Assembly (NCBI GenBank): GCA_003278145.1
Contig: QCGV01000001.1
Span: 139,616 to 203,615 of the forward strand
Source of the DNA: OCS116 cluster bacterium AG-390-A19
GTDB lineage: Bacteria; Pseudomonadota; Alphaproteobacteria; MED-G09
Reading direction: 5' to 3'
DNA length: 64,000 nt
The notes below the pieces were generated by a model. That model was not told the origin of the DNA, did not search any database, and was given only the letters and a program-made list of their open reading frames with translations. Positions 2,136 to 34,786 of the stretch are shown one piece after another. A program made the position numbers and the translations under genes. Numbering within the stretch: position 1 is the stretch's first letter; each line of letters begins with the position of its first letter.

Positions 2136-4607
2136 ATGCGTTTTTTTAAGTATATGTTTATTGGTTTCATTTTTGTTGCAATTACATTAATAGCTGATAA
2201 CAGAGCTTTTGCTCAAGAGACAGGTGTTTCTTCAAGACAGATAGACGAAATAATTGTTACTTCAAGAAAAACTGAAGAAAATATTCAGGATGTTCCAATT
2301 GCTGTTTATGCAGTAGATGAGAAAGCTTTAGATGATTTTCGACCAACAACTATGAGAGACTTAGATAGTCTTGCACCTAATTTGCAAGTTGGTATGAATT
2401 CAGCTTCAGGTAATCAAGGTGCAATTTTTGTTCGTGGATGTGGTTATGCCGAAGTAGAAAAAACTCAAAATCCACCAGTAGGCTTAATTGTTGATGGATT
2501 ATTTTTAGGAACTAATACCGGTACTTTATTAGATGCTTTTGATTGGTCTAAGATACAGGTGAATTCAGGTCCTCAAGGTGTTGTTTATGGTAAAAATACT
2601 TCTTGTGGTAATATTGTTGTAGAAAGAAATAAGCCATCAAAAGATTTTGAATTTGACACTGAAGTGTCAATTGGTAACTATGAGGCATATGAATTAGGCG
2701 TCATATTAAATATTCCTATCAATGATAAAGTTTCTTCACGTTGGAACTTTAGAAAACTTGCTCACCAAGGTTATTATGACAATTTATATACTGAAAAAGA
2801 TTCAGGACAATTAGATATTGCTGCGGCAAGTGCTCGTTTTTTAATTGAAGCATCTGAAAATACTGAAATTTATATCATTACAGACTATTATTATGATAGA
2901 GGTGATACAGCACCAGTTTCCTATTCAGGAAATCCTTTTGGTGCAGGATGTGTTCCTAATTTTGGAGCTGGTTTAGGATTGGTTGGAGCAGCTGATAATG
3001 GATGTACTCCTGGTCTGGGAGCAGTAACTGCAACTGAGTTAAGTACAGCTGGTGCAGCAATTGGTATTACTCCTTTTGCTGGTTTTGCAGGGCTTGAGCC
3101 ATTTTTCTCTCAAACTGAGGCACTTCCTCCTCACGTTGTTAATCTTGATAACCCAGAACAATCAGATATGGATTTTCTAAGAGGCAGTATTGAAGTTGTT
3201 TCAGATACTTTGATCGGTGAAGTAACTATTGCTACTTCTTATTTACAGTTAGATGACAATGTTCTTCAAGATTTTGATGCAACTCCAGGTTTTGGTGGTG
3301 GCCAAGGAAATCCTGCTACATTAGGTGGACCTCTTCATACTGCAAGAAATCAACATTTTTCTCAGTTTTCTCAGGAAATTAGAGTTTCTAATGATATAAC
3401 TGACAAATTAAACTTAACTACTGGAATATTTTTATGGAAAGACTCTATAATGCTTCAGCAACATTCTGGTGGAGTTGTTCAAACTTCAGGTCAAGATACA
3501 GAGTCTGTAGCAATTTTTGCATTAGTTAAATATGATGTATCAGATGATTTATCTATTTCTGGTGGTTTTAGATATGTTGATGAATCAAAAGACTTTCATT
3601 CTCAATATAATACTATTGTAGGTCCAGGTACTTATGGAACTGTTGCTCCTCTTGACTCTCCAGTTGTACTACCTAGGTTTACGAGATCAGCATCTTGGGA
3701 TGATTACATGGGTGAAGCATCTGTCGATTGGCAAGTAACAGAGGATAGTCTTTTATACGCTAGATGGGCAAGGGGCTTTAGATCAGGGGGTTATTCTATT
3801 AGATATGCAGCATCGGATACTCTAACTGCCTCTAGAGTAGCAGATCTGAATGCTCAAGGATTTGCTCTGGTTCCTCAAGCACATGCTAGAGAAGGAAGTG
3901 ACTTTAGTGTATTTGATCCAGAACTTACTGAATTATTTGAAATAGGATCTAAAAACACATTTTTAGATGGTTCTTTGCAAGTGAATGGTGCTGTCTTTCA
4001 AACTACTACTGAAGGTTTCCAAGCTTCAAGTATTTTGTCAACAGCTGGTGCGTTTAGAGCAACTGATACTTACATTAATAATTATCAGGAAACAGAAATA
4101 TCTGGTGCAGAGGTTCAAATTGTTTGGTTACCTCCAGTAGACGGTCTAACTCTCAGATTAAATTATGGTATCTTGGATCCAAAGATCAATGATGCTGTAG
4201 TTGATTCTGGAAGATTGGGTGTTGGCGGCAGACCAACCCAAGCAGGAACAATGGTTGATCTAGTAAATTCTGGGGTCACTCCTCAATTAGCGAGAGTTCC
4301 AGAGACAAGTTTTGCATTAACAGCTTTGTATGAATATAAACTTAATAATGGTGCATCGCTTAACACAAATGTAACATACAGAGGTTTCGATGATCAGAAT
4401 TTAACTATTTCATCATTCCCAGATAGTGAAGATGGATATGAGCTTCTAGATGCAACTATAACTTATGATGCTGGTGATTATTCTATTGCACTTATTGGTA
4501 GAAATCTTACTGACGAGGAATATAGAACTCACTCATTAACATCTGTTAGATTCCAAGGTTGGGGTGATCCTGCAACTTACATGTTAGAATTACGAAATTC
4601 TTGGTAA
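2136..4607 (+). CDS. TonB-dependent outer-membrane receptor
   Basis: Signal peptide; plug-type N-terminus (DEIIVTSRKTEENIQDVP, VNSGPQGVVYGKNTSCG); 823 aa with beta-strand-like alternation; C-terminal aromatic residue (..LRNSW); GGGGAG Shine-Dalgarno 7 nt upstream of the ATG. Confidence 0.85.
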   Translation: MRFFKYMFIGFIFVAITLIADNRAFAQETGVSSRQIDEIIVTSRKTEENIQDVPIAVYAVDEKALDDFRPTTMRDLDSLAPNLQVGMNSASGNQGAIFVRGCGYAEVEKTQNPPVGLIVDGLFLGTNTGTLLDAFDWSKIQVNSGPQGVVYGKNTSCGNIVVERNKPSKDFEFDTEVSIGNYEAYELGVILNIPINDKVSSRWNFRKLAHQGYYDNLYTEKDSGQLDIAAASARFLIEASENTEIYIITDYYYDRGDTAPVSYSGNPFGAGCVPNFGAGLGLVGAADNGCTPGLGAVTATELSTAGAAIGITPFAGFAGLEPFFSQTEALPPHVVNLDNPEQSDMDFLRGSIEVVSDTLIGEVTIATSYLQLDDNVLQDFDATPGFGGGQGNPATLGGPLHTARNQHFSQFSQEIRVSNDITDKLNLTTGIFLWKDSIMLQQHSGGVVQTSGQDTESVAIFALVKYDVSDDLSISGGFRYVDESKDFHSQYNTIVGPGTYGTVAPLDSPVVLPRFTRSASWDDYMGEASVDWQVTEDSLLYARWARGFRSGGYSIRYAASDTLTASRVADLNAQGFALVPQAHAREGSDFSVFDPELTELFEIGSKNTFLDGSLQVNGAVFQTTTEGFQASSILSTAGAFRATDTYINNYQETEISGAEVQIVWLPPVDGLTLRLNYGILDPKINDAVVDSGRLGVGGRPTQAGTMVDLVNSGVTPQLARVPETSFALTALYEYKLNNGASLNTNVTYRGFDDQNLTISSFPDSEDGYELLDATITYDAGDYSIALIGRNLTDEEYRTHSLTSVRFQGWGDPATYMLELRNSW

Positions 4608-22808: not shown

Positions 22809-24104
22809 TTAAATTGAAATCCAATTACCTTCTGGAGACAATTGCTCATCCTGATCGTTATAAAAACTTTCAGCATTATTTTCTTTGAGAACTTTCAGCA
22901 TGTAAGGAAGCTCCATACCTTCCTTTTCAAGTTTATCAATAATTTTGTAAGGACCTATATTATCCATTGCCTTGAAAGGACCATTACTCCAATTAAAACC
23001 CCATTGCATTGCACGATCAACGCTAACAATATCATCGGCAATAATTGGTACTAGATTTGCCGCATAACATAATGTTGCTCCGTAAACATCCCATGCAAGA
23101 ATACCATCAGGGCCATCATCAAATAAAATATTAATATCATTTATATCTAACTCTTCTTTTTTTTGTGGTCTCCATGTCTTTGTTAAGAGATCAAAGGTTT
23201 CTTTATTTCGCGAACCATCCTCATTTTTAGTCATTCTGAAAAAACCGCCACCAGTTTTTCTTCCGAATTGGCCATTTGTTATCATTTCTTTTTCTGCTTC
23301 AGGAAATTCACCGTATTGTTTTCCTAGGTCTCCTTCAGGAAGATTAACTGCAAAGTTTTTACCTATCATTTCCATTACATCCAAACCTATAAGATCATAC
23401 AGGCTATAAAGTCCGGTTGATGGAAGCCCTATTGGGGTTGAAAGTATTGCATCTACTCTTTCTTGGCTTAATCCTTTATCCAATGCTTCTTTACCTTTAT
23501 GTAAACCAATAAACATAAAGAAACATCCAATTCTATTAGCAATAAAACTAATTGTATCTTTTGCAATAACAACCCCTTTTTCTAGGGTTTGAGTGCAAAA
23601 AAGATTGAGAGCTTCAACTGTTTCTGGATCTGTATCATTTCCAGGAACTATCTCTAATAATTTCATTGCTTTTACAGGATTAAAAAAATGAGTTACAGCT
23701 AAATTCTTTTTTAATCTGTCTGGCATTCCTTCTGAAATTTCTTTCAATAATATTCCTGAGGTATTTGAGGTAAGAATTGTGTGATCAGATCTAACTTCCT
23801 CAACTCGTTTTATAAGCTCTCTTTTTGCTTCAGCATTTTCAATAATTGCTTCGCAAATCCAATCATAATTTTTTAGCTTTTCTAAATCTTTATCGAAAGT
23901 ACCTGTTTCAATATTTGCCATTTTTTCTGGGTTATCAATTGGAGCAGGTATTCCGTTTAGCAATCTATCTTTTGCAGCATCAACTGCATCTTGATTAATC
24001 TCTAGAATTAGCACCTTTATATCCCTTTCAGCACATAAACCAGCTATACCAGCACCCATAGTACCACCACCAAGAACTGCCACAGATTTAATTTCTTTTG
24101 TCAT
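22809..24104 (-). CDS. 3-hydroxyacyl-CoA dehydrogenase (NAD-binding plus C-terminal domains)
   Basis: VLGGGTMGAGIAG Rossmann motif and the HFFNPV motif. 431 aa with no enoyl-CoA hydratase domain. Confidence 0.88.
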   Translation of the reverse strand: MTKEIKSVAVLGGGTMGAGIAGLCAERDIKVLILEINQDAVDAAKDRLLNGIPAPIDNPEKMANIETGTFDKDLEKLKNYDWICEAIIENAEAKRELIKRVEEVRSDHTILTSNTSGILLKEISEGMPDRLKKNLAVTHFFNPVKAMKLLEIVPGNDTDPETVEALNLFCTQTLEKGVVIAKDTISFIANRIGCFFMFIGLHKGKEALDKGLSQERVDAILSTPIGLPSTGLYSLYDLIGLDVMEMIGKNFAVNLPEGDLGKQYGEFPEAEKEMITNGQFGRKTGGGFFRMTKNEDGSRNKETFDLLTKTWRPQKKEELDINDINILFDDGPDGILAWDVYGATLCYAANLVPIIADDIVSVDRAMQWGFNWSNGPFKAMDNIGPYKIIDKLEKEGMELPYMLKVLKENNAESFYNDQDEQLSPEGNWISI

Positions 24105-24112
24105 ATTGTTTC

Positions 24113-24592
24113 CTAAAATTTAAGTTCTTCTTTTGAAACTACAATCCCATCCTCATCTGCATAAATAAAATCGCCATCAGAAATTGTAATATTTGCAAAA
24201 TTTAATGTCACATTAAATTCACCACCATCATTTTTTATAGATTTTTTTGGATGAGCAGCTAACGCTTTAACGCCAATTTTTTCAACTATGATTTCTAGTT
24301 GATCTCTCACACATCCATTTATAATTATACCAGACCAATTATTTTCAGAGGCCATGCTTGCTAAATTCCCACCAAGTAGGGCACAATTCATTGAACCTTC
24401 GCCATCAACAACCAAAACCTTATTAGTCCCGTCAGACTCAAGAGAAGATCTTACCTTTGTATTATCATCAAGAGTCTTAAGGGTAATAGCTTTACCGAAA
24501 AAAGCAGTTCTGCCTCCAAAATCCTTAAAAATTGGTTTTGCAACTAAAGTACTCTCCGGGTACTTATCGCATATATCTGCCGTTGGTAGCAT
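24113..24592 (-). CDS. RraA / 4-hydroxy-4-methyl-2-oxoglutarate aldolase family protein
   Basis: Collinear with E. coli RraA: DFGGRTAFFGKAITLK, VLVVDGEGS, GIIINGCVRD. Length 159 aa. Confidence 0.85.
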   Translation of the reverse strand: MLPTADICDKYPESTLVAKPIFKDFGGRTAFFGKAITLKTLDDNTKVRSSLESDGTNKVLVVDGEGSMNCALLGGNLASMASENNWSGIIINGCVRDQLEIIVEKIGVKALAAHPKKSIKNDGGEFNVTLNFANITISDGDFIYADEDGIVVSKEELKF

Positions 24593-24607
24593 AAAGCTTA
24601 GAGTTTA

Positions 24608-25882
24608 CTAAAATTGATCTGCTTCAGTAGAGTCACTTAATGCTGTTGTTGATGATTCACCACCTGCAGCAGCTTCAGAAACCATATCAAAATAGCCTGT
24701 TCCAACCTCTCTTTGGTGACGAGTGGCAGTATAACCATCTTTTTCAGAACCAAATTCTGCTTGCTGAAGTTCTGAGTAAGCACCCATACCTCGATCTCTA
24801 AAGTTAGATGCCAATTCAAACATTCCATAATTTAAAGAATGGAAGCCGGCTAATGTAACAAATTGATATTTAAAACCTAATTTTCCGATTTCTTCGCGGA
24901 AAGTCTCAATAGTATCTTTATCGAGGTTTGCTTCCCAATTAAAGCTTGGAGAGCAATTGTATGCTAACATTTGATTAGGATAAGCAGCTTTAACTTGTTT
25001 CGCAAATTCTGCGGCTACTTCAATACTAGGTACTGAGGTCTCCATCCAAATTAAATCTGCATGAGGTGCATAAGCAATTGCCCTTTTTACACAGTTATCA
25101 AAGCCTGAGCCTTCCTTAAGTCTATAAAAGCCTTCCGGAGTTCTATCGTCTCTATCAATAAACTCATGATCTCTCTCATCAACATCTGATGTAATTAGTT
25201 TAGCGCTTTCAGCATCTGTTCTTGCGACAATTATTGTAGGCACACCACAAACATCAGCTGCAAGTCTTGCTGCATTTAGATTTCTGATATGTTGTTTAGT
25301 TGGTATTAAAACTTTACCACCCATGTGACCACATTTTTTTTCAGAAGCAAGTTGATCCTCAAAATGAACGCCAGATGCACCAGCATCAATATAAGCTTTC
25401 ATAATTTCAAAACAATTTAGAGGTCCACCGAATCCTGCTTCAGCATCGGCAATAATAGGTGCAAACCAATCTCTTTTTGCTCCACCTTCAGATACTTCAA
25501 TTTGATCAGCTCTTTGAAGGGTTTTGTTAATCTTTCTTGCTAACTCAGGACCTGAATTGGCAGGGTATAAACTTTGATCAGGATATGTTGCACCAGCAGT
25601 ATTATTATCTGCAGCTACTTGCCAGCCTGACAAATAAATTGCTTTTAAACCAGCTCTTACCATCTGCATGGCTTGATTACCTGACAAGGCACCTAAAGAT
25701 GATACTTGATCCTCAGTATGAAGCATATTCCAAAGCTTATTTGAGCCTCTTGTAGCTAATGTATATTCAATTGGAAATGACCCTCTCAGTTTTTCAACAT
25801 CTTCAACTGAGTATGGTCTCTCAATACCATCGAATCTTCCTTCAGGAGCAGAAGGAACTAAATCATAAAAACTTTTTGCCAT
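24608..25882 (-). CDS. aceA: Isocitrate lyase
   Basis: KKCGHMGGK active-site signature. Length 424 aa. Confidence 0.95.
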
Positions 25883-25909
25883 GTTTTTCCCCTTTATTTA
25901 TTTGAAAGC

Positions 25910-27523
25910 TTATTTATTTAAAGAAATTATTTCTTCATAAGCTGATAGTGTTAGGAATTCTTTACAGTCAGGAGATATAGACATTTTCTCAAATAATTCA
26001 ATAGCTTTTTCATATTTTCCATCTTTCCATTGATTTTCTCCAATTATTTCTTTTAGACCTTTGATTTCATCGTCAAGAATTGATTTAAAAAATTCAACAG
26101 TAACAGTTCTTCCATCGCTAAGTGATGTTGAGTGTTTAAGCCATTGCCAAATCTGAGCACGAGAAATTTCAGCTGTTGCAGCATCTTCCATTAAATTATA
26201 AAGAGGCACAGCACCTCTTCCGCCTAACCATGCAGCTATATATTGAATACCAACCCTAATGCATTCTCTCATTCCATCCTCAGTCTTTTCTCCTTTGTGA
26301 ACCTCTAACAAATCTTTTTGCGTAATATTTATATTATCTAAAGAGACATCAAGTTGATTTTCCCCTGATATTGATGTGCTGAATACTTCGAGAGCAGTTG
26401 GAACGAGACCTGGATGAGCAACCCAAGTACCATCATGACCATTCTTTACTTCTCTTTCTTTATCTTTTTTTACTTTATCAAAAGCAGCATTATTTTTTTC
26501 ATCATCATCTTTGACAGGTATTTGTGCTGCCATACCGCCCATAGCAAAGGCACCTCTTTTATGGCATGTTTTTATAAGTAATAGTGAATATGCATTTAAA
26601 AAAGCATCACCCATAACAACCTGAGATCTATCAGGTAATATATAGTCTGGATTATTTCCTAATCTTTTAATGTAACTAAAAATATAATCCCATCTTCCGC
26701 AATTGAGACCAACTATATGATCCTTAAGTTCATATAAAATCTCATCCATTTGAAAAGCTGCCGGAAGAGTTTCTATTAATACTGTTGCTTTACATGTACC
26801 TATTGGTATGTTTAGTATTTCTTGCGCTTTATTAAAGACTTTATTCCAAAGTCTTGCTTCTAAGTAACTTTCCATTTTTGGTAGATAAAAATAAGGCCCT
26901 GTATTTTTTTCAAAAATATTTTTATGATTATGAAATAGATAAACTGCATAATCAAAGATACCTCCAGAAATTCTCTCACCGTCAATTTCAATATGCGCCT
27001 CTTCTAGATGCCATCCCCTTGGTCTAACTATAAGGACTGATGGGTTGGGATTAAGTTTATATTCTTTTCCAGAGTTTGGATCTTTGAAATCTATTTCATC
27101 ATTCCATAAATCCATTAAATTAATTTGTCCTTGAATTATATTTTCCCATGTTGGTGACATTGAGTCTTCAAAATCCGTCATAAAAGTTTTGGCATCAGAA
27201 TTTAGAGCATTAATAATCATTTTACGATCAACAGGACCAGTTATTTCAACTTGCCTATCAAGAAGATCATTAGGTATTGATGCAACTTTCCAATCTGACT
27301 CTCTTATAGATTTTGTTTCTTCTAAAAAATCAGGTAATGCACCATTATCAAGATCAAACTGTTTTCTTAGTCTTTCTTGAAGAACTCCTAATCTTTCTCT
27401 TTTAAACTCTCTTTCAAGCTCAGCAACAAATGCTAAGCATTCTTTAGTTAGTATTTTTTCAATTCCAGGATGATCCGGACCAAGGATTTCTACACCTTTT
27501 GGTGTTTCTAAATTCAATGCCAT
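25910..27523 (-). CDS. aceB: Malate synthase A
   Basis: 537 aa. Motifs typical of the A-type enzyme: GLNCGRWDYIFS, FYLPKMES, DGTWVAHPG. Confidence 0.93.
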   Translation of the reverse strand: MALNLETPKGVEILGPDHPGIEKILTKECLAFVAELEREFKRERLGVLQERLRKQFDLDNGALPDFLEETKSIRESDWKVASIPNDLLDRQVEITGPVDRKMIINALNSDAKTFMTDFEDSMSPTWENIIQGQINLMDLWNDEIDFKDPNSGKEYKLNPNPSVLIVRPRGWHLEEAHIEIDGERISGGIFDYAVYLFHNHKNIFEKNTGPYFYLPKMESYLEARLWNKVFNKAQEILNIPIGTCKATVLIETLPAAFQMDEILYELKDHIVGLNCGRWDYIFSYIKRLGNNPDYILPDRSQVVMGDAFLNAYSLLLIKTCHKRGAFAMGGMAAQIPVKDDDEKNNAAFDKVKKDKEREVKNGHDGTWVAHPGLVPTALEVFSTSISGENQLDVSLDNINITQKDLLEVHKGEKTEDGMRECIRVGIQYIAAWLGGRGAVPLYNLMEDAATAEISRAQIWQWLKHSTSLSDGRTVTVEFFKSILDDEIKGLKEIIGENQWKDGKYEKAIELFEKMSISPDCKEFLTLSAYEEIISLNK

Positions 27524-27618: not shown

Positions 27619-29121
27619 TTGCGGAGAATTTTAAGCTTGGAAAAAAAGAAAAAAATTAAACCACAAAGACCTAGAGGCTTTGAAGATTTATCAGGAAGTA
27701 GCTTGAGTGAGCTTGTTCAATTGAGAGATTCCATTCAAAAAGTTTATGGTCTTTATGGTTTTGAACCTCTTGAAACTGGAATCATTGAATATTCAGATGT
27801 AATAGGGTCTTTTTTACCTGATCAAGATCGCCCAAATGAAGGTGTTTTTTCTTTTGAAGATGATGATAAAAGGTGGGTTTCATTAAGGTATGATTTGACT
27901 TCTGGCTTAGCTAGGTATGTAGCTGAGAATTTTGATAGCCTGCCTAAACCATATAGAAGATATCAATCAGGATGGGTTTTTAGAAATGAAAAACCAGGCC
28001 CTGGAAGATATAGACAATTTTATCAAATTGATGCTGATACAATTGGAAGTGATAATGCTCTTTCAGATGCCGAGATGTGCATGATGTTTTCTGATGCAAT
28101 ACAAAATACCGGTATTGAAGTAGGAAATTATGTAATACGTTTAAGTAATAGAAAAATTTTAGATGGGATTATTGATAGTCTTAATATTAAAGGAAATTCA
28201 TCAGGGTCTGAAATTAATCTATCAATTATGAGATCAATAGACAAGCTTGATCGACTGGGTTTAATGGGTGTAGAACAACTTCTTGGTGAAGGTAGAAAAG
28301 ATGATTCGGGAGACTATACTAAAGGCGCAGGTTTAGAGAAATCAGATATTAAACAAATATTATCATTTTTAGAAAGCGGAATTGAGTCAAAAATGCTTTC
28401 AAGAGAAGCATGTCTTAAAAATTTATCAAATCAATTTGGCACTAATGAAATTTTTAACGAAGCTCTAGAAGAATTGAATGAAATTTCAAAGATAATCGAT
28501 GCTGCTGGATATGATGAAAATAAAATTATAATTGATCCATCGGTTGTAAGAGGATTAGGATATTACACTGGTCCAGTTTATGAAGCTGATTTAACTTTTG
28601 ATATGGAAACAGATCAAGGGTTAGAAAAGTTTGGATCAATAGGTGGGGGTGGCCGTTATGATGATTTGGTTGCTAGACTAAAAGGAGTTAGAGTTCCTTC
28701 CACAGGTATCTCAGTTGGTGTTAGTAGATTAAGTAGTGCTTTAAAATACATAAATCAGTCAGAAGAAAATTCTGAGACTTTATCAGTTGTTGTTCTTGTG
28801 ATGGATAAAGAAAAAAGATCTGAATATTATAAAATTGCATCTAATTTAAGAAATGAGGGTATTAGTTCAGAGTGCTATTCTGGGGATGGAGGAATGAAGG
28901 CTCAGTTAAAGTATGCCGATAAACGAAATGCAAGGCTTGCTATTATTATTGGTGAGGATGAAGCTTCTTCCAAATCTGCAACAATTAAAGATTTATATAT
29001 TGGAAAAGAGTTTTCTGATAAAATTTCTGATAACAAAGAGTGGAGAAGCGGAAAAGATTCTCAGCAAAATGTACCAATTAAAGACCTTATTAACTCGGTA
29101 AAATCAATACTTTCAAAATAA
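27619..29121 (+). CDS. hisS: Histidine--tRNA ligase (long alphaproteobacterial type)
   Basis: Class II motifs (RYQSGWVFRNEKPGPGRYRQFYQIDAD, GGGGRYDDL). The in-frame TTG at 27637, 11 nt after GGAG, is a plausible alternative start. Confidence 0.92.
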   Translation: MRRILSLEKKKKIKPQRPRGFEDLSGSSLSELVQLRDSIQKVYGLYGFEPLETGIIEYSDVIGSFLPDQDRPNEGVFSFEDDDKRWVSLRYDLTSGLARYVAENFDSLPKPYRRYQSGWVFRNEKPGPGRYRQFYQIDADTIGSDNALSDAEMCMMFSDAIQNTGIEVGNYVIRLSNRKILDGIIDSLNIKGNSSGSEINLSIMRSIDKLDRLGLMGVEQLLGEGRKDDSGDYTKGAGLEKSDIKQILSFLESGIESKMLSREACLKNLSNQFGTNEIFNEALEELNEISKIIDAAGYDENKIIIDPSVVRGLGYYTGPVYEADLTFDMETDQGLEKFGSIGGGGRYDDLVARLKGVRVPSTGISVGVSRLSSALKYINQSEENSETLSVVVLVMDKEKRSEYYKIASNLRNEGISSECYSGDGGMKAQLKYADKRNARLAIIIGEDEASSKSATIKDLYIGKEFSDKISDNKEWRSGKDSQQNVPIKDLINSVKSILSK

Positions 29122-29177
29122 ATTCATATTTTATGAATAATTATATTGATTCTTAAATAAATTCATAATATATGAAT
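29122..29177. promoter_or_regulatory. Two copies of a perfect 17-bp palindrome, ATTCATA-N3-TATGAAT (candidate operator pair or RNA hairpins)
   Basis: Copy 1 is 29122-29138 (ATTCATATTTTATGAAT). Copy 2 is 29161-29177 (ATTCATAATATATGAAT). Both sit inside a 24-nt direct repeat, AAATAAATTCATAnnnTATGAATA, with 39-bp spacing. Copy 2 ends 4 nt before the hisZ ATG. Confidence 0.5.
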
Positions 29178-29181
29178 ATTT

Positions 29182-30540
29182 ATGATTAAGGAAACTAATA
29201 AAATTATTGACTTATTGGGAGGAACAGGCGCTTTAGCAAAGTTGTTAGATGTTAATCTTTCTGCTGTATCTAATTACAGAAAAAAAGGATTTCCAGATAG
29301 ATTACATTATAAAATTGCAACTTTATGCAATGAAAGAGATATTACTATCGATAGTAAAATTTTTGGCGAATTTTCTAATACTTTACCAGCTATTGATACC
29401 AGACCTTTGGAGATTTTAAGTGAAGTTTCTATAAAAGTTATCGAAAGTTTAACCGGCGATGATTTCGAGTTGATTGATCCACCTGTTTTAGTTTCCGCTG
29501 ATAAAGTTCTTGATAGATTAGGTGAGAATATTGCCGATAAGCTATATATATTTTCTGATCCAGCTGGCTCTAGACTCTGTTTGAGACCAGATCTTACGAT
29601 ACCAACATGTATCCATTATTTAAATAATGGTTTTAATGGTATTAAAAAAAACTATGCATATCATGGAAAGGTATTTCAGTTTCAAAATCCATCATCTAAT
29701 GAGCCAAATGAATTTACTCAGGCTGGTCTCGAGATTATTGGTGGTAATAGCTGTATTGAAAATGAAATAGAAGTTTTTTTTAGAACTTATAAGTCTATTG
29801 AACAGTCCGGAATTAGAAACTTCAATATTATTCTTGGAGATGTTTCTTTATTTTCGATTTTAATAGATGTTCTTGATATACCTGTTATATGGAAAGATCA
29901 GCTAAAAGCTAAATTTTGGAATGATAAAAATTTCAAAAAACTTCTAGATGAGCTAACTGTTAAGAAAAAAGTAAACAATAAGTTATTTCAAAAAATATCA
30001 AATTTAGATAATGATACTGCTGAAATTTTTGTTAGGGATACAATTGGATTGTTAGAAAATCAATCGCCTGTTGGAAGAAGTTTGAAAGAAATAACTCAAA
30101 GGCTGATAAAAAAATCTCAAGAAATAAAAACTGACCCACTTTCAAAACCAACTGTAAAACTTATAAAGGAATTTTTATCTATCTCTGATAAACCTCTGCA
30201 AGCCCTAAAAAAACTGAGGTCTATTTCTAAAAATATTGATAGTAGATTAAATTCTCAAATTGATTCTATGTCAGAGAGAATCGAAATGATGCTTAAGTTA
30301 AAGGTTGATATCAAAAATTCAATTTTATCAGTGGAAAAAGGGAGGATGGTTGAGTACTACACAGGATTTTTATTTGATTTTAATTCGAGTGATTTAAGAA
30401 ATAATCTAAATATCGCAGGAGGGGGCAGATATGATGATTTGATCAATTCTGTGAGTGATGAAAATAATATACCTGCTGTTGGTGCTGCTATTAATTTAGA
30501 TAGACTTGAAAAAATAATTTCTTCGGAGAAATTTAAATGA
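29182..30540 (+). CDS. hisZ: ATP phosphoribosyltransferase regulatory subunit HisZ with an in-frame N-terminal Cro/YdaS-like HTH domain
   Basis: Residues ~66-452 are HisS-paralogue-like (LRPDLTIPTCIHYL, QAGLEIIG, GGGRYDDL). Residues 1-65 (IIDLLGGTGALAKLLDVNLSAVSNYRKKGFP) resemble E. coli YdaS (VVGGQSAMARLLGVSPPSVNQWIKG). No stop codon and no internal ATG between the two parts. Confidence 0.8.
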   Translation: MIKETNKIIDLLGGTGALAKLLDVNLSAVSNYRKKGFPDRLHYKIATLCNERDITIDSKIFGEFSNTLPAIDTRPLEILSEVSIKVIESLTGDDFELIDPPVLVSADKVLDRLGENIADKLYIFSDPAGSRLCLRPDLTIPTCIHYLNNGFNGIKKNYAYHGKVFQFQNPSSNEPNEFTQAGLEIIGGNSCIENEIEVFFRTYKSIEQSGIRNFNIILGDVSLFSILIDVLDIPVIWKDQLKAKFWNDKNFKKLLDELTVKKKVNNKLFQKISNLDNDTAEIFVRDTIGLLENQSPVGRSLKEITQRLIKKSQEIKTDPLSKPTVKLIKEFLSISDKPLQALKKLRSISKNIDSRLNSQIDSMSERIEMMLKLKVDIKNSILSVEKGRMVEYYTGFLFDFNSSDLRNNLNIAGGGRYDDLINSVSDENNIPAVGAAINLDRLEKIISSEKFK

Positions 30541-31514
30541 GCTCAATATTGTTAGCACTACCTTCAAAAGGTAGGCTCCATGACCAAATGAATAAATTTT
30601 TTGAATCTTCTGGAATAATTCTTAAAAGATCTGGAGGTCAGAGGACTTATTCGGGTTTTATAAAAGATATAGAGGAAATAGAAATTATTTATCTTTCTGC
30701 AACAGAGATCTCTAGTGAACTATTAAAGGGTAATATTCATATGGGTGTTACCGGCATTGACTTAATTGAAGAAGGTAGAACAAGTGCATCAAAAGATGTT
30801 ACTCTGCTATCAAGGTTGGGTTTTGGAAAAGCCAATGTTGTAATAGCTGTCCCAGATCACTGGATAGATGTAGAAAATATAAGAGATTTATCTGAAGTAT
30901 CATCAGAATTTCGATCTTACAATAATAGAAGAATGAGAGTTGCTACAAAATTTACAAATATAACAAGAAATTTTTTCACAAAAAATGGTATTAATAACTA
31001 TAGACTTGTTGATAGTGCTGGAGCTACTGAGGGATCTCCTGCAGCAGGTACCTCTGAAATAATTGTTGATATAACAGAAACAGGTCAAACAATTGAGGCT
31101 AATAATTTAAAGGTTCTTGAAGACGGCATAATGCTTAAAAGTGAAATATGCATTTTCTCAAGTACAAATGATATTTGGAAAGATATTGATCTTAAACCTG
31201 TAGAGAGGTTTTTAAGAATAATTTCTGCACGATCTGAAGCATTAGGAAATGCTGAATTACTTTTTGACTACAATAGAGAGGATAAAGATCTAGAAATAAA
31301 TTTATTTAGAGAGTTTAATTCGTCATTTGTTAATGGTTCTCCAAATATTGGAGAGAGTGTTTCACTAATTACTCCAATCTCAATGGTACCATCTTGTACT
31401 TATTATTTAACAAGTAATGGATATGGACCAGTAAGAACAACAAGACCTGATTTTATTTATAATCAAGACTCTCGATCATGGAAACTTTTAAAAAACTCTA
31501 TTAATTTAAAATAA
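30537..31514 (+). CDS. hisG: ATP phosphoribosyltransferase
   Basis: LALPSKGRL N-terminus, DLIEE, ATKFTNITRNFF, IVDITETGQT. ATGA start/stop overlap with hisZ. Confidence 0.92.
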   Translation: MSSILLALPSKGRLHDQMNKFFESSGIILKRSGGQRTYSGFIKDIEEIEIIYLSATEISSELLKGNIHMGVTGIDLIEEGRTSASKDVTLLSRLGFGKANVVIAVPDHWIDVENIRDLSEVSSEFRSYNNRRMRVATKFTNITRNFFTKNGINNYRLVDSAGATEGSPAAGTSEIIVDITETGQTIEANNLKVLEDGIMLKSEICIFSSTNDIWKDIDLKPVERFLRIISARSEALGNAELLFDYNREDKDLEINLFREFNSSFVNGSPNIGESVSLITPISMVPSCTYYLTSNGYGPVRTTRPDFIYNQDSRSWKLLKNSINLK

Positions 31515-33261: not shown

Positions 33262-33549
33262 TTAACTAATAATACCAAGAACATCTGACTCTTTCATAAT
33301 CAGTAATTCTTTACCATCGACAGTCACTTCTGTTCCTGACCATTTACCAAAAAGTATTTTGTCACCTGATTTTACATCAAGAGGTGTAACAGAGCCGTCT
33401 TCAGCTTTTGTTCCTGATCCAACAGCAACAACTTTACCTTCAGATGGTTTTTCCTTTGCTGTATCAGGTATAATTATACCACCAGCAGTTTTTTCATCTT
33501 CATCAATGCGTTCAACTAAAACACGGTCGTGTAAAGGACGAAATTTCAT
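33262..33549 (-). CDS. groS: Co-chaperonin GroES
   Basis: [12 protein letters not shown].., [13 protein letters not shown] mobile loop. Length 95 aa. Immediately upstream of groEL. Confidence 0.97.
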
Positions 33550-33850
33550 TTTTTTTTCTCCACTTTAATTTAAAAAAAATAACTAAATCCTTGATCTTTC
33601 CCATAATAAGATCTCGGGTCAACCTTAGGTAATTATCGTTTACCTCAGTGTCAAGTACTTAAACTCAATTTTTTGGATATTTTTTGAGTTTTTTACACTT
33701 TTTTTGTAAATTACTGATATATTTTGTTAAAAAATATATAAAATTTATTAAAAAACACCTAAATTTTATTAAATTTATACTTTTTTTTTATTTTTTTTCG
33801 AATTTTAATAATTATTTACATGTTTAATTAATAGACTATTAATTTTTTGA

Positions 33851-34786
33851 TTGTTAAATAGAGATATGTTTTTTCAAGCTTTACTTTTTCCAGTAGGTAT
33901 TTTGCTCCTGGCAGTTGGAGGGGATAGATTAGTTATAGGATCAGTTGCTCTTTCAAATAAACTTAATATTCCAGCATTTATAACGGGAATATTTATCATT
34001 GGATTTGGTACATCTCTTCCAGAGTTATTTGTGACACTAAGTGCTTTAAGTAAAAATGAAGCTGATATAGCAATTGGAGCTATTATTGGGTCAAATATTA
34101 TTAATATTCTTCTAATCTTGGGTTTATCACTAGTCCTTTCAAATAAGAAATCCCTAGAGTCCATTTCATATAAAGATATTTTAGTAATGATCTTATGTGC
34201 TTTCTTATTTTCATATTTTTTACAAATCGGTCTTATAAATAACCTTTGGTCAATAATTATGATTATTTTATTGCCGATTTATCTATTTGTTTCTTACAAA
34301 TTTTTTAATAACAATAATCAGTTGACTAACGATAGTTCACAAAATGGATCAATAATTTTTAATCTATTGATTGGATTTATTGCAATAATTTATGGATCAG
34401 AGATTTTTATAGAGGGTCTAATTTATATTTCAGAAGTTTTAAATATTCCTGAAGCAATTATTGGAATTAGTCTTGCAGCAATAGGGACATCTCTTCCAGA
34501 ATTAGCGGTAACAATTGCTTCTTTTATAAGAGGTAAGGGAAGTGTTGCTATTGGTAATGTTGTTGGTTCAAATATATTTAATATATTAGGCGTTTTAGGT
34601 TTATCTGCATTTATAAGCGGGCAGATTAGTTTTTCAAAATCCTTCTCAGGTATTGATACAGCTATTTTAATTCTTTCAAGTTTATGGGTTTTTATCCTAG
34701 TAAGAAATGGATCCACAAATCCGAAATTATATGGTTCCATTTCATTAATTGGATATTTTAGTTACATGATCTTTTTATATTCTTAA
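33851..34786 (+). CDS. Ca2+/Na+ antiporter family (CaCA, YrbG-like) membrane protein
   Basis: Two alpha-repeat motifs GTSLPEL (GFGTSLPELFVT and IGTSLPELAVT) in a ~10-TM protein. The listed start is TTG; ATG 33866 is an alternative. Confidence 0.85.
   Translation: MLNRDMFFQALLFPVGILLLAVGGDRLVIGSVALSNKLNIPAFITGIFIIGFGTSLPELFVTLSALSKNEADIAIGAIIGSNIINILLILGLSLVLSNKKSLESISYKDILVMILCAFLFSYFLQIGLINNLWSIIMIILLPIYLFVSYKFFNNNNQLTNDSSQNGSIIFNLLIGFIAIIYGSEIFIEGLIYISEVLNIPEAIIGISLAAIGTSLPELAVTIASFIRGKGSVAIGNVVGSNIFNILGVLGLSAFISGQISFSKSFSGIDTAILILSSLWVFILVRNGSTNPKLYGSISLIGYFSYMIFLYS

Follow-up and report, generated by a model that had tools for sequence, protein, structure and literature searches.

The locus considered here lies in a 64,000-nucleotide stretch of contig QCGV01000001.1 (hereafter, the window, at its full length) from OCS116 cluster bacterium AG-390-A19, a marine alphaproteobacterium. 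Three genes follow each other on the plus strand: hisS, which encodes histidine--tRNA ligase, hisZ, for the regulatory subunit of ATP phosphoribosyltransferase, and hisG, for its catalytic subunit, an order that is kept in relatives. The HisZ protein carries at its N-terminus a helix-turn-helix (HTH) domain that resembles the Cro proteins of phages, and the short spacer between hisS and hisZ contains two palindromes, O1 and O2. It is probable, on the comparisons described below, that these are operators of the fused HTH domain, and the arrangement suggests that HTH-HisZ controls the transcription of its own hisZ-hisG operon. The features of the locus are as follows (nt, nucleotides).

27619 to 29121, plus strand: hisS, histidine--tRNA ligase (TIGR00442, 363.8 bits for a cut-off of 286.75; Pfam tRNA-synt_His and HGTP_anticodon).
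29122 to 29138, no strand: candidate operator O1, ATTCATA-TTT-TATGAAT, with the core TTCATA-N3-TATGAA at 29123 to 29137; upstream of the candidate -35 box.
29146 to 29151, plus strand: candidate -35 box, TTGATT, placed 17 nt before TATATG; the TTGAT columns are 96% identical among relatives, vs 54-57% in the neighbouring ones.
29161 to 29177, no strand: candidate operator O2, ATTCATA-ATA-TATGAAT, with its core at 29162 to 29176; overlaps the candidate -10 box.
29169 to 29174, plus strand: candidate -10 box, TATATG, inside O2; transcripts would begin with the A of the ATG (29182) or one nucleotide earlier.
29182 to 30540, plus strand: HTH-HisZ open reading frame, 452 amino acids, with both domains in one polypeptide.
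29182 to 29334, plus strand: HTH domain of the fusion, amino acids 1-51, four helices, with the recognition helix at about amino acids 26-35 (LSAVSNYRKK).
29335 to 29421, plus strand: linker between the HTH and HisZ domains, amino acids 52-80, with a helix at 58-67 and a predicted local distance difference test score (pLDDT) below 50 at amino acids 65-75.
29422 to 30540, plus strand: HisZ domain (PF13393, 107 bits), a HisRS-like class II core without the anticodon-binding domain.
30537 to 31514, plus strand: hisG, ATP phosphoribosyltransferase catalytic subunit, 325 amino acids (TIGR00070, 166.9 bits for a cut-off of 75.75).

The spacer extends over 60 bp (29122-29181), between the TAA of hisS and the ATG of hisZ. 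The hisS stop codon (29119-29121) abuts O1, and the hisZ ATG at 29182 lies 4 nt past the end of O2. Both palindromes are perfect, with arms of 7 nt around a centre of 3 nt, and they are 39 bp apart. Each is contained in one copy of a 24-nt unit, AAATAAATTCATAtttTATGAATA at 29116-29139 and AAATAAATTCATAataTATGAATA at 29155-29178, the first of which also includes the hisS stop codon. An earlier note on this DNA, made from the window's letters, had described both the palindromes and the duplicated unit. Our reading of the palindromes agrees with it in sequence and position; the duplication is likewise present in two copies, but its AAATAA flank varies among relatives, and on that comparison the functional unit is the 15-17-bp palindrome TTCATA-N3-TATGAA and not the 24-nt unit.

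The motif is rare outside the spacer. ATTCATA-N3-TATGAAT has two exact matches in the window, for 0.00 expected from 100 dinucleotide shuffles, and if two mismatches are allowed, just two further and unrelated sites appear, which corresponds to the chance level. With a weight matrix made from 13 distinct sites of relatives, both spacer sites score 24.1 bits, and the next best site of the window 10.7 bits. The relaxed core TTCA-N7-TGAA is found twice in the window, at the two operator sites only, for 4.75 +/- 2.2 expected from dinucleotide shuffles, and four times outside the spacer in 152 kb of sequence from relatives; this scarcity may reflect the avoidance of spurious binding sites. The earlier note's remarks that the motif had not been noticed elsewhere in the window and that chance was an unlikely source are thus both borne out by the counts, and the scattering through the genome that it had proposed to look for is not seen in the sequence sampled.

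That the two palindromes have no function, being a product of chance, of a neutral duplication in AT-rich DNA or of a small mobile palindromic repeat, is most improbable. The GC content of the window is indeed low (29-35%), and the two 24-nt units share their AAATAA flank, as a recent duplication would; nevertheless, the exact matches far exceed their expectation, no further copies are found in the window, and both copies are kept at a fixed spacing in 20 related genomes, in which the flanks are down to 48-60% identity. A dispersed repeat of the repetitive extragenic palindrome (REP) or miniature inverted-repeat transposable element (MITE) type was rejected on the numbers of sites, namely two copies in 64 kb and four relaxed-core sites outside the spacer in the 152 kb of relatives. 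Several known binding motifs were also set aside, since the orientation or the spacing of their half-sites does not fit: the ARG box (TGAAT-N4-ATTCA), the alphaproteobacterial LexA site (GTTC-N7-GTTC), the CtrA site (TTAA-N7-TTAA), and those of FNR/CRP and Fur, all compared by their half-sites and not by a formal search.

One of the two-mismatch matches is itself a palindrome, ATTAATA-GAC-TATTAAT (33827-33843), situated 8 nt upstream of a Ca/Na antiporter open reading frame that starts with TTG (33851-34786), in the region from which groES (33262-33549, minus strand) diverges. It is seemingly unrelated to the operators.

The comparison with relatives relies on 20 OCS116/PS1 genomes of marine Alphaproteobacteria (19 distinct sequences for pairwise identity), in which the N-terminal 110 amino acids of the fusion protein are 51-96% identical, the closest being an OCS116 single-cell genome (96%). 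Both palindromes occur in all 20 relatives, and their centres are 39 bp apart in all 21 genomes, including that of the window. The mean pairwise identity reaches 0.97 in the arms of O1, 0.98 in O2 including its centre and 0.96 in the TTGAT box between them; it is 0.48 in the 3' end of hisS, 0.48 in the 3-nt centre of O1 and 0.54-0.60 in the remaining spacer. In half of the relatives, and in GC-rich kin, the left arm of O1 includes the hisS stop codon (..TCA TAA). For example, loci L008-L020 (at -58 to -56 from the hisZ ATG), as well as L039, L055 and L066, read ..AGT TCA TAA or ..ATT TCA TAA, with the final hisS codons and the operator using the same bases.

As read from this alignment, the conservation of the palindromes is specific to the bases and not to their pairing. 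This bears on the possibility that the sites act as RNA, through two hairpins, or through pairing between the repeats, in a transcript reading through from hisS to hisZ, with attenuation or an occluded initiation of hisZ as the outcome. A 7-bp hairpin is possible at each palindrome, the fold of the 96-nt region reaches -13.9 kcal/mol (z = -2.0), and read-through is plausible, there being no terminator between the two genes. Against these points, the hairpins are worth -3.5 kcal/mol each and consist of A-U pairs but for one G-C pair, the AUG stays outside them, and in a 43-nt context the z-score is only -0.6. Among the 12 pairs that RNAalifold predicts from the 20 relatives, the number of compensatory changes is 0, and the covariation term stands at +0.05; the rare substitutions, TTCAAA in L004, CATGAA in L008 and TGTGAA in L014, are uncompensated. 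No Rfam match is obtained even at E<=1, no stem followed by a T-run resembles a terminator, and in GC-rich hosts the sites stay AT-rich with their sequence unchanged. An RNA function is, therefore, very unlikely, and the hairpins that the earlier note had offered as a block to hisZ initiation are disfavoured. More generally, an attenuator, a T-box or a riboswitch was rejected as the element of the spacer, in view of the weak structures, the missing covariation and the lack of a family match.

The fusion also exists well beyond the PS1/OCS116 clade. When metagenomes were scanned with a profile built on HTH domains that come from beyond the clade, 65 loci were obtained, and the distant set retained for analysis comprises 33 loci outside the clade, of 39-60% GC, whose lineages are not all independent. 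Within 250 nt upstream of the fusion gene, TTCA-N7-TGAA is present at 27 of these 33 loci. Its density, 42 sites or 5.4 per kb in the upstream regions, compares with 0.057 per kb in the other 106 kb (about 95-fold), and these upstream regions, when dinucleotide-shuffled, contain 0.6 +/- 0.7 core sites; the enrichment of the core upstream of the fusions far exceeds what redundancy among the loci could yield. The exact form TTCATA-N3-TATGAA stands upstream of distant fusions of 45-59% GC (for example, L039, L046, L049, L054, L055, L066, L073, L077 and L078), and no copy with up to one mismatch is found elsewhere in any scanned locus. Lineages that lack the exact form have sites of the TTCAAT-N3-ATTGAA type, with the TTCA-N7-TGAA core unchanged.

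Three hisZ genes without the HTH domain have no such palindrome upstream. Two of them overlap hisS by 4 nt and hence have no spacer at all, and the third, of the Parvibaculum type, follows a 93-nt spacer with an AAAGAGG Shine-Dalgarno sequence and no palindrome. As the motif accompanies the fusions and is missing at unfused hisZ genes, the HTH domain and the operator-bearing spacer appear together. The overlap of hisS and hisZ in relatives without the fusion also indicates that the operon was earlier translationally coupled.

In two lineages with divergent HTH domains, the palindromes differ as well. Locus L021 (59% GC), which encodes protein P0052, has QAVSQWTK in its recognition helix instead of SAVSNYRK, and its palindromes (3920-4000) are ACTTTCA-N5-TGAAAGT, then CTTGAA, then an inverted TGAAAG-N5-CTTTCA, so the half-sites of the second site have swapped their orientation. 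Locus L024 (protein P0117, 65% GC), also with a divergent HTH domain, shows TTTCAGG-N8-CCTGAAA at 3900-4000. A recognition code linking the residues of helix 3 to the inner operator bases (TTCATA or TTCAAT type) was looked for and rejected, as the lineages are mixed and follow no clean rule.

The sites could also be operators of a separate trans-acting regulator, for instance one that responds to histidine or nitrogen, with the fused HTH domain doing something else. The core TTCA-N7-TGAA is short and AT-rich, which would suit this explanation. It is, nevertheless, unlikely, because the motif co-occurs with the fusion from 31 to 60% GC and is missing from the three unfused hisZ loci, because a change of recognition helix goes with a change of palindrome in one lineage, because no further copy is found in the window, and because the promoters of stand-alone homologues of the domain bear the same core. 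Operators read by the HTH domain of HisZ itself are better in line with these observations, and with the nature of that domain.

By sequence profile and predicted fold, the N-terminal domain seems to belong to the all-alpha Cro family or to be closely related to it. AlphaFold2 predicts amino acids 1-51 with a pLDDT of 85-91 and helices at 2-11, 14/15-22, 26-35 and 39-51. A profile of fusion N-termini searched against the sequences of the PDB retrieves Cro of the Xylella prophage Xfaso 1 (3bd1, E=5e-5), then P22 Cro (E=0.1). The same Xfaso 1 protein is the best Foldseek match of the domain (TM score 0.63-0.65, root-mean-square deviation 2.4, 35% identity), followed by N15 Cro, P22 Cro (root-mean-square deviation 1.6) and 434 Cro; the E-values of these matches are weak, 0.13 or higher, the domain being so small. 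Similarity to YdaS (PF15943) is weak too, at 17.5 bits for a cut-off of 30. The linker that follows the domain differs in length and sequence between lineages.

Searched with the domain only, a set of 1.84 billion representative proteins gave 128 matches. About 19 of them are proteins of 354-470 amino acids, and all eight tested are HisZ fusions; the fusion architecture is kept in relatives that are 96-50% identical to the window protein and in more distant fusions at 33-34%. Most of the remaining matches are stand-alone proteins of 60-110 amino acids. The two inspected, in loci L095 (1088-1704; 73 amino acids) and L089 (834-1419), are each divergent from an XRE/CI-type HTH_3 gene (101-104 amino acids), with paired palindromes of the TTCAAG-N3-CTTGAA type between the divergent genes. 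By its gene content and sites, this arrangement looks like a Cro/CI-like switch, and such stand-alone pairs with paired sites suggest the origin of the HisZ-fused domain and its operators.

The rest of the protein is recognizable as HisZ. In the Pfam scan it has no HGTP_anticodon match, unlike the adjoining hisS product. The best NCBIfam models are all named 'ATP phosphoribosyltransferase regulatory subunit', which is also the public annotation of the whole fusion protein, and all are below their equivalog cut-offs (NF008953, 292.6 bits for 384; TIGR00443, 134 for 271.65). More GC-rich fusion proteins exceed the HisZ cut-off (P0052 with 428.5 bits and P0117 with 396.6), so the low score here probably results from divergence in an AT-rich genome. 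The AlphaFold2 model of the fusion protein (pLDDT 86) has as top Foldseek matches the HisZ structures 3od1, 1z7m, 8oy0 and 6ftt, together with HisRS, and the HisRS-type motifs CLRPDLT and GGGRYD are invariant across 86 HisZ sequences, fused and unfused.

The conservation between and within the palindromes suggests an internal promoter. Relatives share an unchanging TATAT at the centre of O2 while the centre of O1 varies freely, and the TTGAT box is fixed 15 nt upstream of O2; this invariance and this fixed distance are what is read as the promoter. The geometry, TTGAC(A/T), 17 nt, a -10-like box, 5-6 nt and ATG, recurs in at least 12 distant lineages; in the wider form TTGAC/T, 17 nt, -10 box, 5-8 nt and ATG it is likewise seen in distant lineages. 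In GC-rich lineages 0-10% of shuffles score equally (1% or fewer in several). In these GC-rich lineages, the proximal operator overlaps the -35 box (TTGACT). The fusion gene has no Shine-Dalgarno sequence upstream, either in the window or in any lineage examined, and the hisZ messenger RNA may be near-leaderless, judging from the position of the candidate -10 box. A scan of the spacer gave no intrinsic terminator of hisS.

The position of the sites also bears on the direction of the control. HTH-HisZ might bind and activate, with O1 recruiting RNA polymerase, or bind independently of histidine, for example as a DNA tether, with no histidine-responsive repression in either case. In favour of activation, the centre of O1 falls some 51 bp before the putative start, farther upstream than the -35 box, in a position open to activators. 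On the other side, O2 covers the putative -10 box and start, and the proximal site covers the TTGACT of the -35 box in GC-rich lineages, which would be the classic position of a repressor; end-product control of the first enzyme of a pathway would, moreover, be the expected logic. Activation or histidine-independent binding is, on balance, an unlikely alternative to repression, which would be expected since O1 is just upstream of the putative promoter and O2 on top of it.

Unfused HisZ binds histidine and mediates the allosteric inhibition of the enzyme, and its head-to-tail dimers make up a tetrameric core with a HisG dimer on either side (PMC10795190). If the fused protein assembles in the same manner, the oligomerization of HisZ would bring two HTH domains onto each TTCATA-N3-TATGAA palindrome, and the four HTH domains of a tetramer could hold O1 and O2 together. 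Occupation of both operators would turn off the transcription of hisZ-hisG from the internal promoter and would prevent read-through out of hisS as well. The co-repressor is probably histidine, because HisZ is the histidine-binding subunit of the enzyme; competition by HisG for HisZ is another possible signal. hisG, whose start the hisZ stop codon overlaps by 4 nt (ATGA), is translationally coupled to hisZ and presumably regulated along with it. From the sites, their conservation and the family relationships, we infer binding, the promoter, repression over activation, the histidine dependence and leaderless translation. The complete scheme is offered as a tentative one, possible rather than probable when all its parts are required at once: HTH-HisZ alternates between the holoenzyme and the DNA, and its histidine-bound tetramer sets two pairs of Cro-like domains on the two operators, shuts off a leaderless hisZ-hisG transcript and blocks read-through from hisS, a prophage-type Cro domain having been recruited along with its operators, which would uncouple histidine biosynthesis from hisS across widespread marine Alphaproteobacteria (OCS116/PS1 and relatives).

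Several observations weigh against this reading, in whole or in part. The HTH domain of the window protein falls below the curated cut-offs, with 19 bits for 30.2 against P22_Cro (PF14549) and 30.5 bits for 38 against NF046037, the 'carph-isopro domain'; this second model is passed by kin of the same fusion family (P0160, 38.7 bits; P0117, 38.2) and by the stand-alone P0145 (48.8). The core is missing in its exact form from six of the 33 distant loci (L026, L060, L062, L069, L071 and L079); most of these have one-mismatch variants, and L026 has none. The spacing of the sites ranges from 15 to 93 bp in other lineages, and is 39 bp in PS1/OCS116 and in L036 (two sites of the TTCAAT-N3-ATTGAA type, 39 bp apart). 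A distance of 39 bp moreover represents about 3.7 helical turns, and would thus put O1 and O2 on different faces of the DNA. As regards the promoter, a standard sigma-70 consensus scan does not call the one proposed, and the matches that it does return are at chance level; it is missed because the -10 box has no T at position 6. In this AT-rich sequence the match of the window promoter is no better than that of shuffles, of which a fraction of 0.29 score equally, so the proposal relies on conservation and on the geometry shared across lineages. About 60% of the genes of the window likewise have no Shine-Dalgarno sequence, and for this reason its absence before hisZ speaks only weakly for a leaderless messenger RNA. 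The histidine dependence is proposed from what is known of unfused HisZ. Finally, the rarity of the motif covers about 216 kb of sampled sequence, beyond which further copies, or other members of a regulon, are possible.

Taken with these reservations, the suggestion of the earlier note that the palindromes are operators of the HTH domain fused to HisZ gains support from their conservation, from their co-occurrence with the fusion and from the Cro-like character of the domain. The relatives that it had proposed to align fall on either side as such operators would predict, since the motif is kept where the fusion is present (20 of 20 PS1/OCS116 genomes and distant lineages) and missing from the three unfused loci.

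A few features of these loci and models stand apart from the argument. The curated NF046037 model covers amino acids 1-68 of the window protein (29182-29385), and a full-text literature search found no paper that uses the name 'carph-isopro domain'. A universal spacing of 39 bp was considered and rejected, as it holds in the 21 PS1/OCS116 genomes, in L036 and, with one mismatch, in L032 only. Locus L026 (protein P0131, on a 1.5-Mb contig) has HTH-hisZ-hisG without a preceding hisS; its upstream neighbour is a tRNA-Pro(cgg) gene on the other strand, and TTCA-N7-TGAA is missing from the region upstream (2180-2530).

The open reading frame of hisS is listed from a TTG, its N-terminus is lysine-rich (MRRILSLEKKKKIKPQRPRGF..), and the hisS model aligns from residue 16; the start codon of the gene, in the 27619-27700 region, is uncertain. 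The HisG models cover amino acids 5-211, and the last 110 or so amino acids (31155-31511) have no Pfam match; none of the solved HisG structures aligns past amino acid 239. The HisG partners of fused and unfused HisZ in relatives are of similar size (300-333 amino acids). By its length and matches, the protein is neither of the classical short form (about 210-230 amino acids) nor of a recognizable HisG_C long form. With this extra C-terminal part, the assembly of the protein may differ somewhat from the quaternary structure of short-form enzymes, on which the model relies.

Immediately upstream of hisS, a block of minus-strand genes (22809-27523) contains the two glyoxylate shunt enzymes, malate synthase A (25910-27523) and isocitrate lyase (24608-25882), as well as an RraA-family protein (24113-24592) and a 3-hydroxyacyl-CoA dehydrogenase (22809-24104). 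The glyoxylate shunt genes thus adjoin a hisS-hisZ-hisG-groESL region.

If the proposal is true, the first enzyme of the pathway would be controlled twice by one histidine-sensing protein, allosterically through HisZ-HisG and transcriptionally through the fused Cro-like domain. An aminoacyl-tRNA synthetase paralogue would join the short list of 'trigger enzymes', as a one-component regulator of a kind not described before, and the locus would offer a clear case of a housekeeping operon that has acquired a phage-switch module, Cro with its operators. These bacteria abound in ocean surface water, and with few regulators in their small AT-rich genome, each one counts. The candidate operator is resolved to single base pairs, its natural variants number more than 50, and purification and crystallization have already been achieved for unfused HisZ.

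To our knowledge, the mechanisms described for the control of histidine biosynthesis genes, namely leader-peptide attenuation, T-boxes and HisR, belong to groups other than the Alphaproteobacteria, in which little is known of this control. A full-text literature search, with subscription journals outside its coverage, returned no description of a fusion of an HTH domain with HisZ or of its operators. One regulator of the same pathway is HisR, a TrpR-family repressor of histidine biosynthesis and a free protein of fewer than 100 amino acids (PMC9413887, which mentions neither a HisZ fusion nor Alphaproteobacteria). As proposed for HTH-HisZ, it is an autoregulated DNA-binding repressor with a palindrome directly upstream of the regulated operon; it differs in being a free protein of the TrpR family and not a Cro-like domain fused to HisZ. 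The his leader-peptide attenuator of Gammaproteobacteria and the T-box(His) riboswitch act on the same pathway, presumably for end-product control as well, and no such attenuator, T-box or other Rfam element was found at the spacer with Rfam, RNAalifold and the terminator scan.

Among proteins that combine a metabolic role with repression, PutA, NadR and the alanyl-tRNA synthetase of E. coli, which represses its own promoter with alanine, are ligand-dependent repressors of their own gene or pathway. They have other DNA-binding folds and other partner enzymes, none of them involving HisZ or ATP phosphoribosyltransferase. The best matches of the N-terminal domain in sequence and fold are the lambdoid all-alpha Cro proteins (Xfaso 1, 3bd1; P22, 1rzs; N15, 2hin/6on0). 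Cro dimers bind pseudo-palindromes of 15-18 bp that overlap promoters, with several operators side by side. Phage Cro is, however, a free protein of about 60-70 amino acids that serves the lysis-lysogeny switch, whereas the domain described here is joined to a subunit of a housekeeping enzyme, and its dimerization is presumably supplied by HisZ.

In its overall design, a close parallel is BirA, which serves E. coli as biotin protein ligase and also represses the bio operon; BirA is catalytic, has a winged HTH, and binds one 40-bp operator with its own product, biotinyl-AMP, as co-repressor. In both proteins an N-terminal HTH domain is fused to a ligand-binding fold of the class II aminoacyl-tRNA synthetase type, and a metabolic protein is, or would be, the repressor of the matching operon; a BirA oligomer binds a palindromic operator over its promoter, as O2 here lies over a putative one. 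The differences concern the parts, namely an all-alpha Cro-type domain, a non-catalytic HisRS paralogue, HisZ, as its partner, and two candidate 17-bp operators, 39 bp apart.

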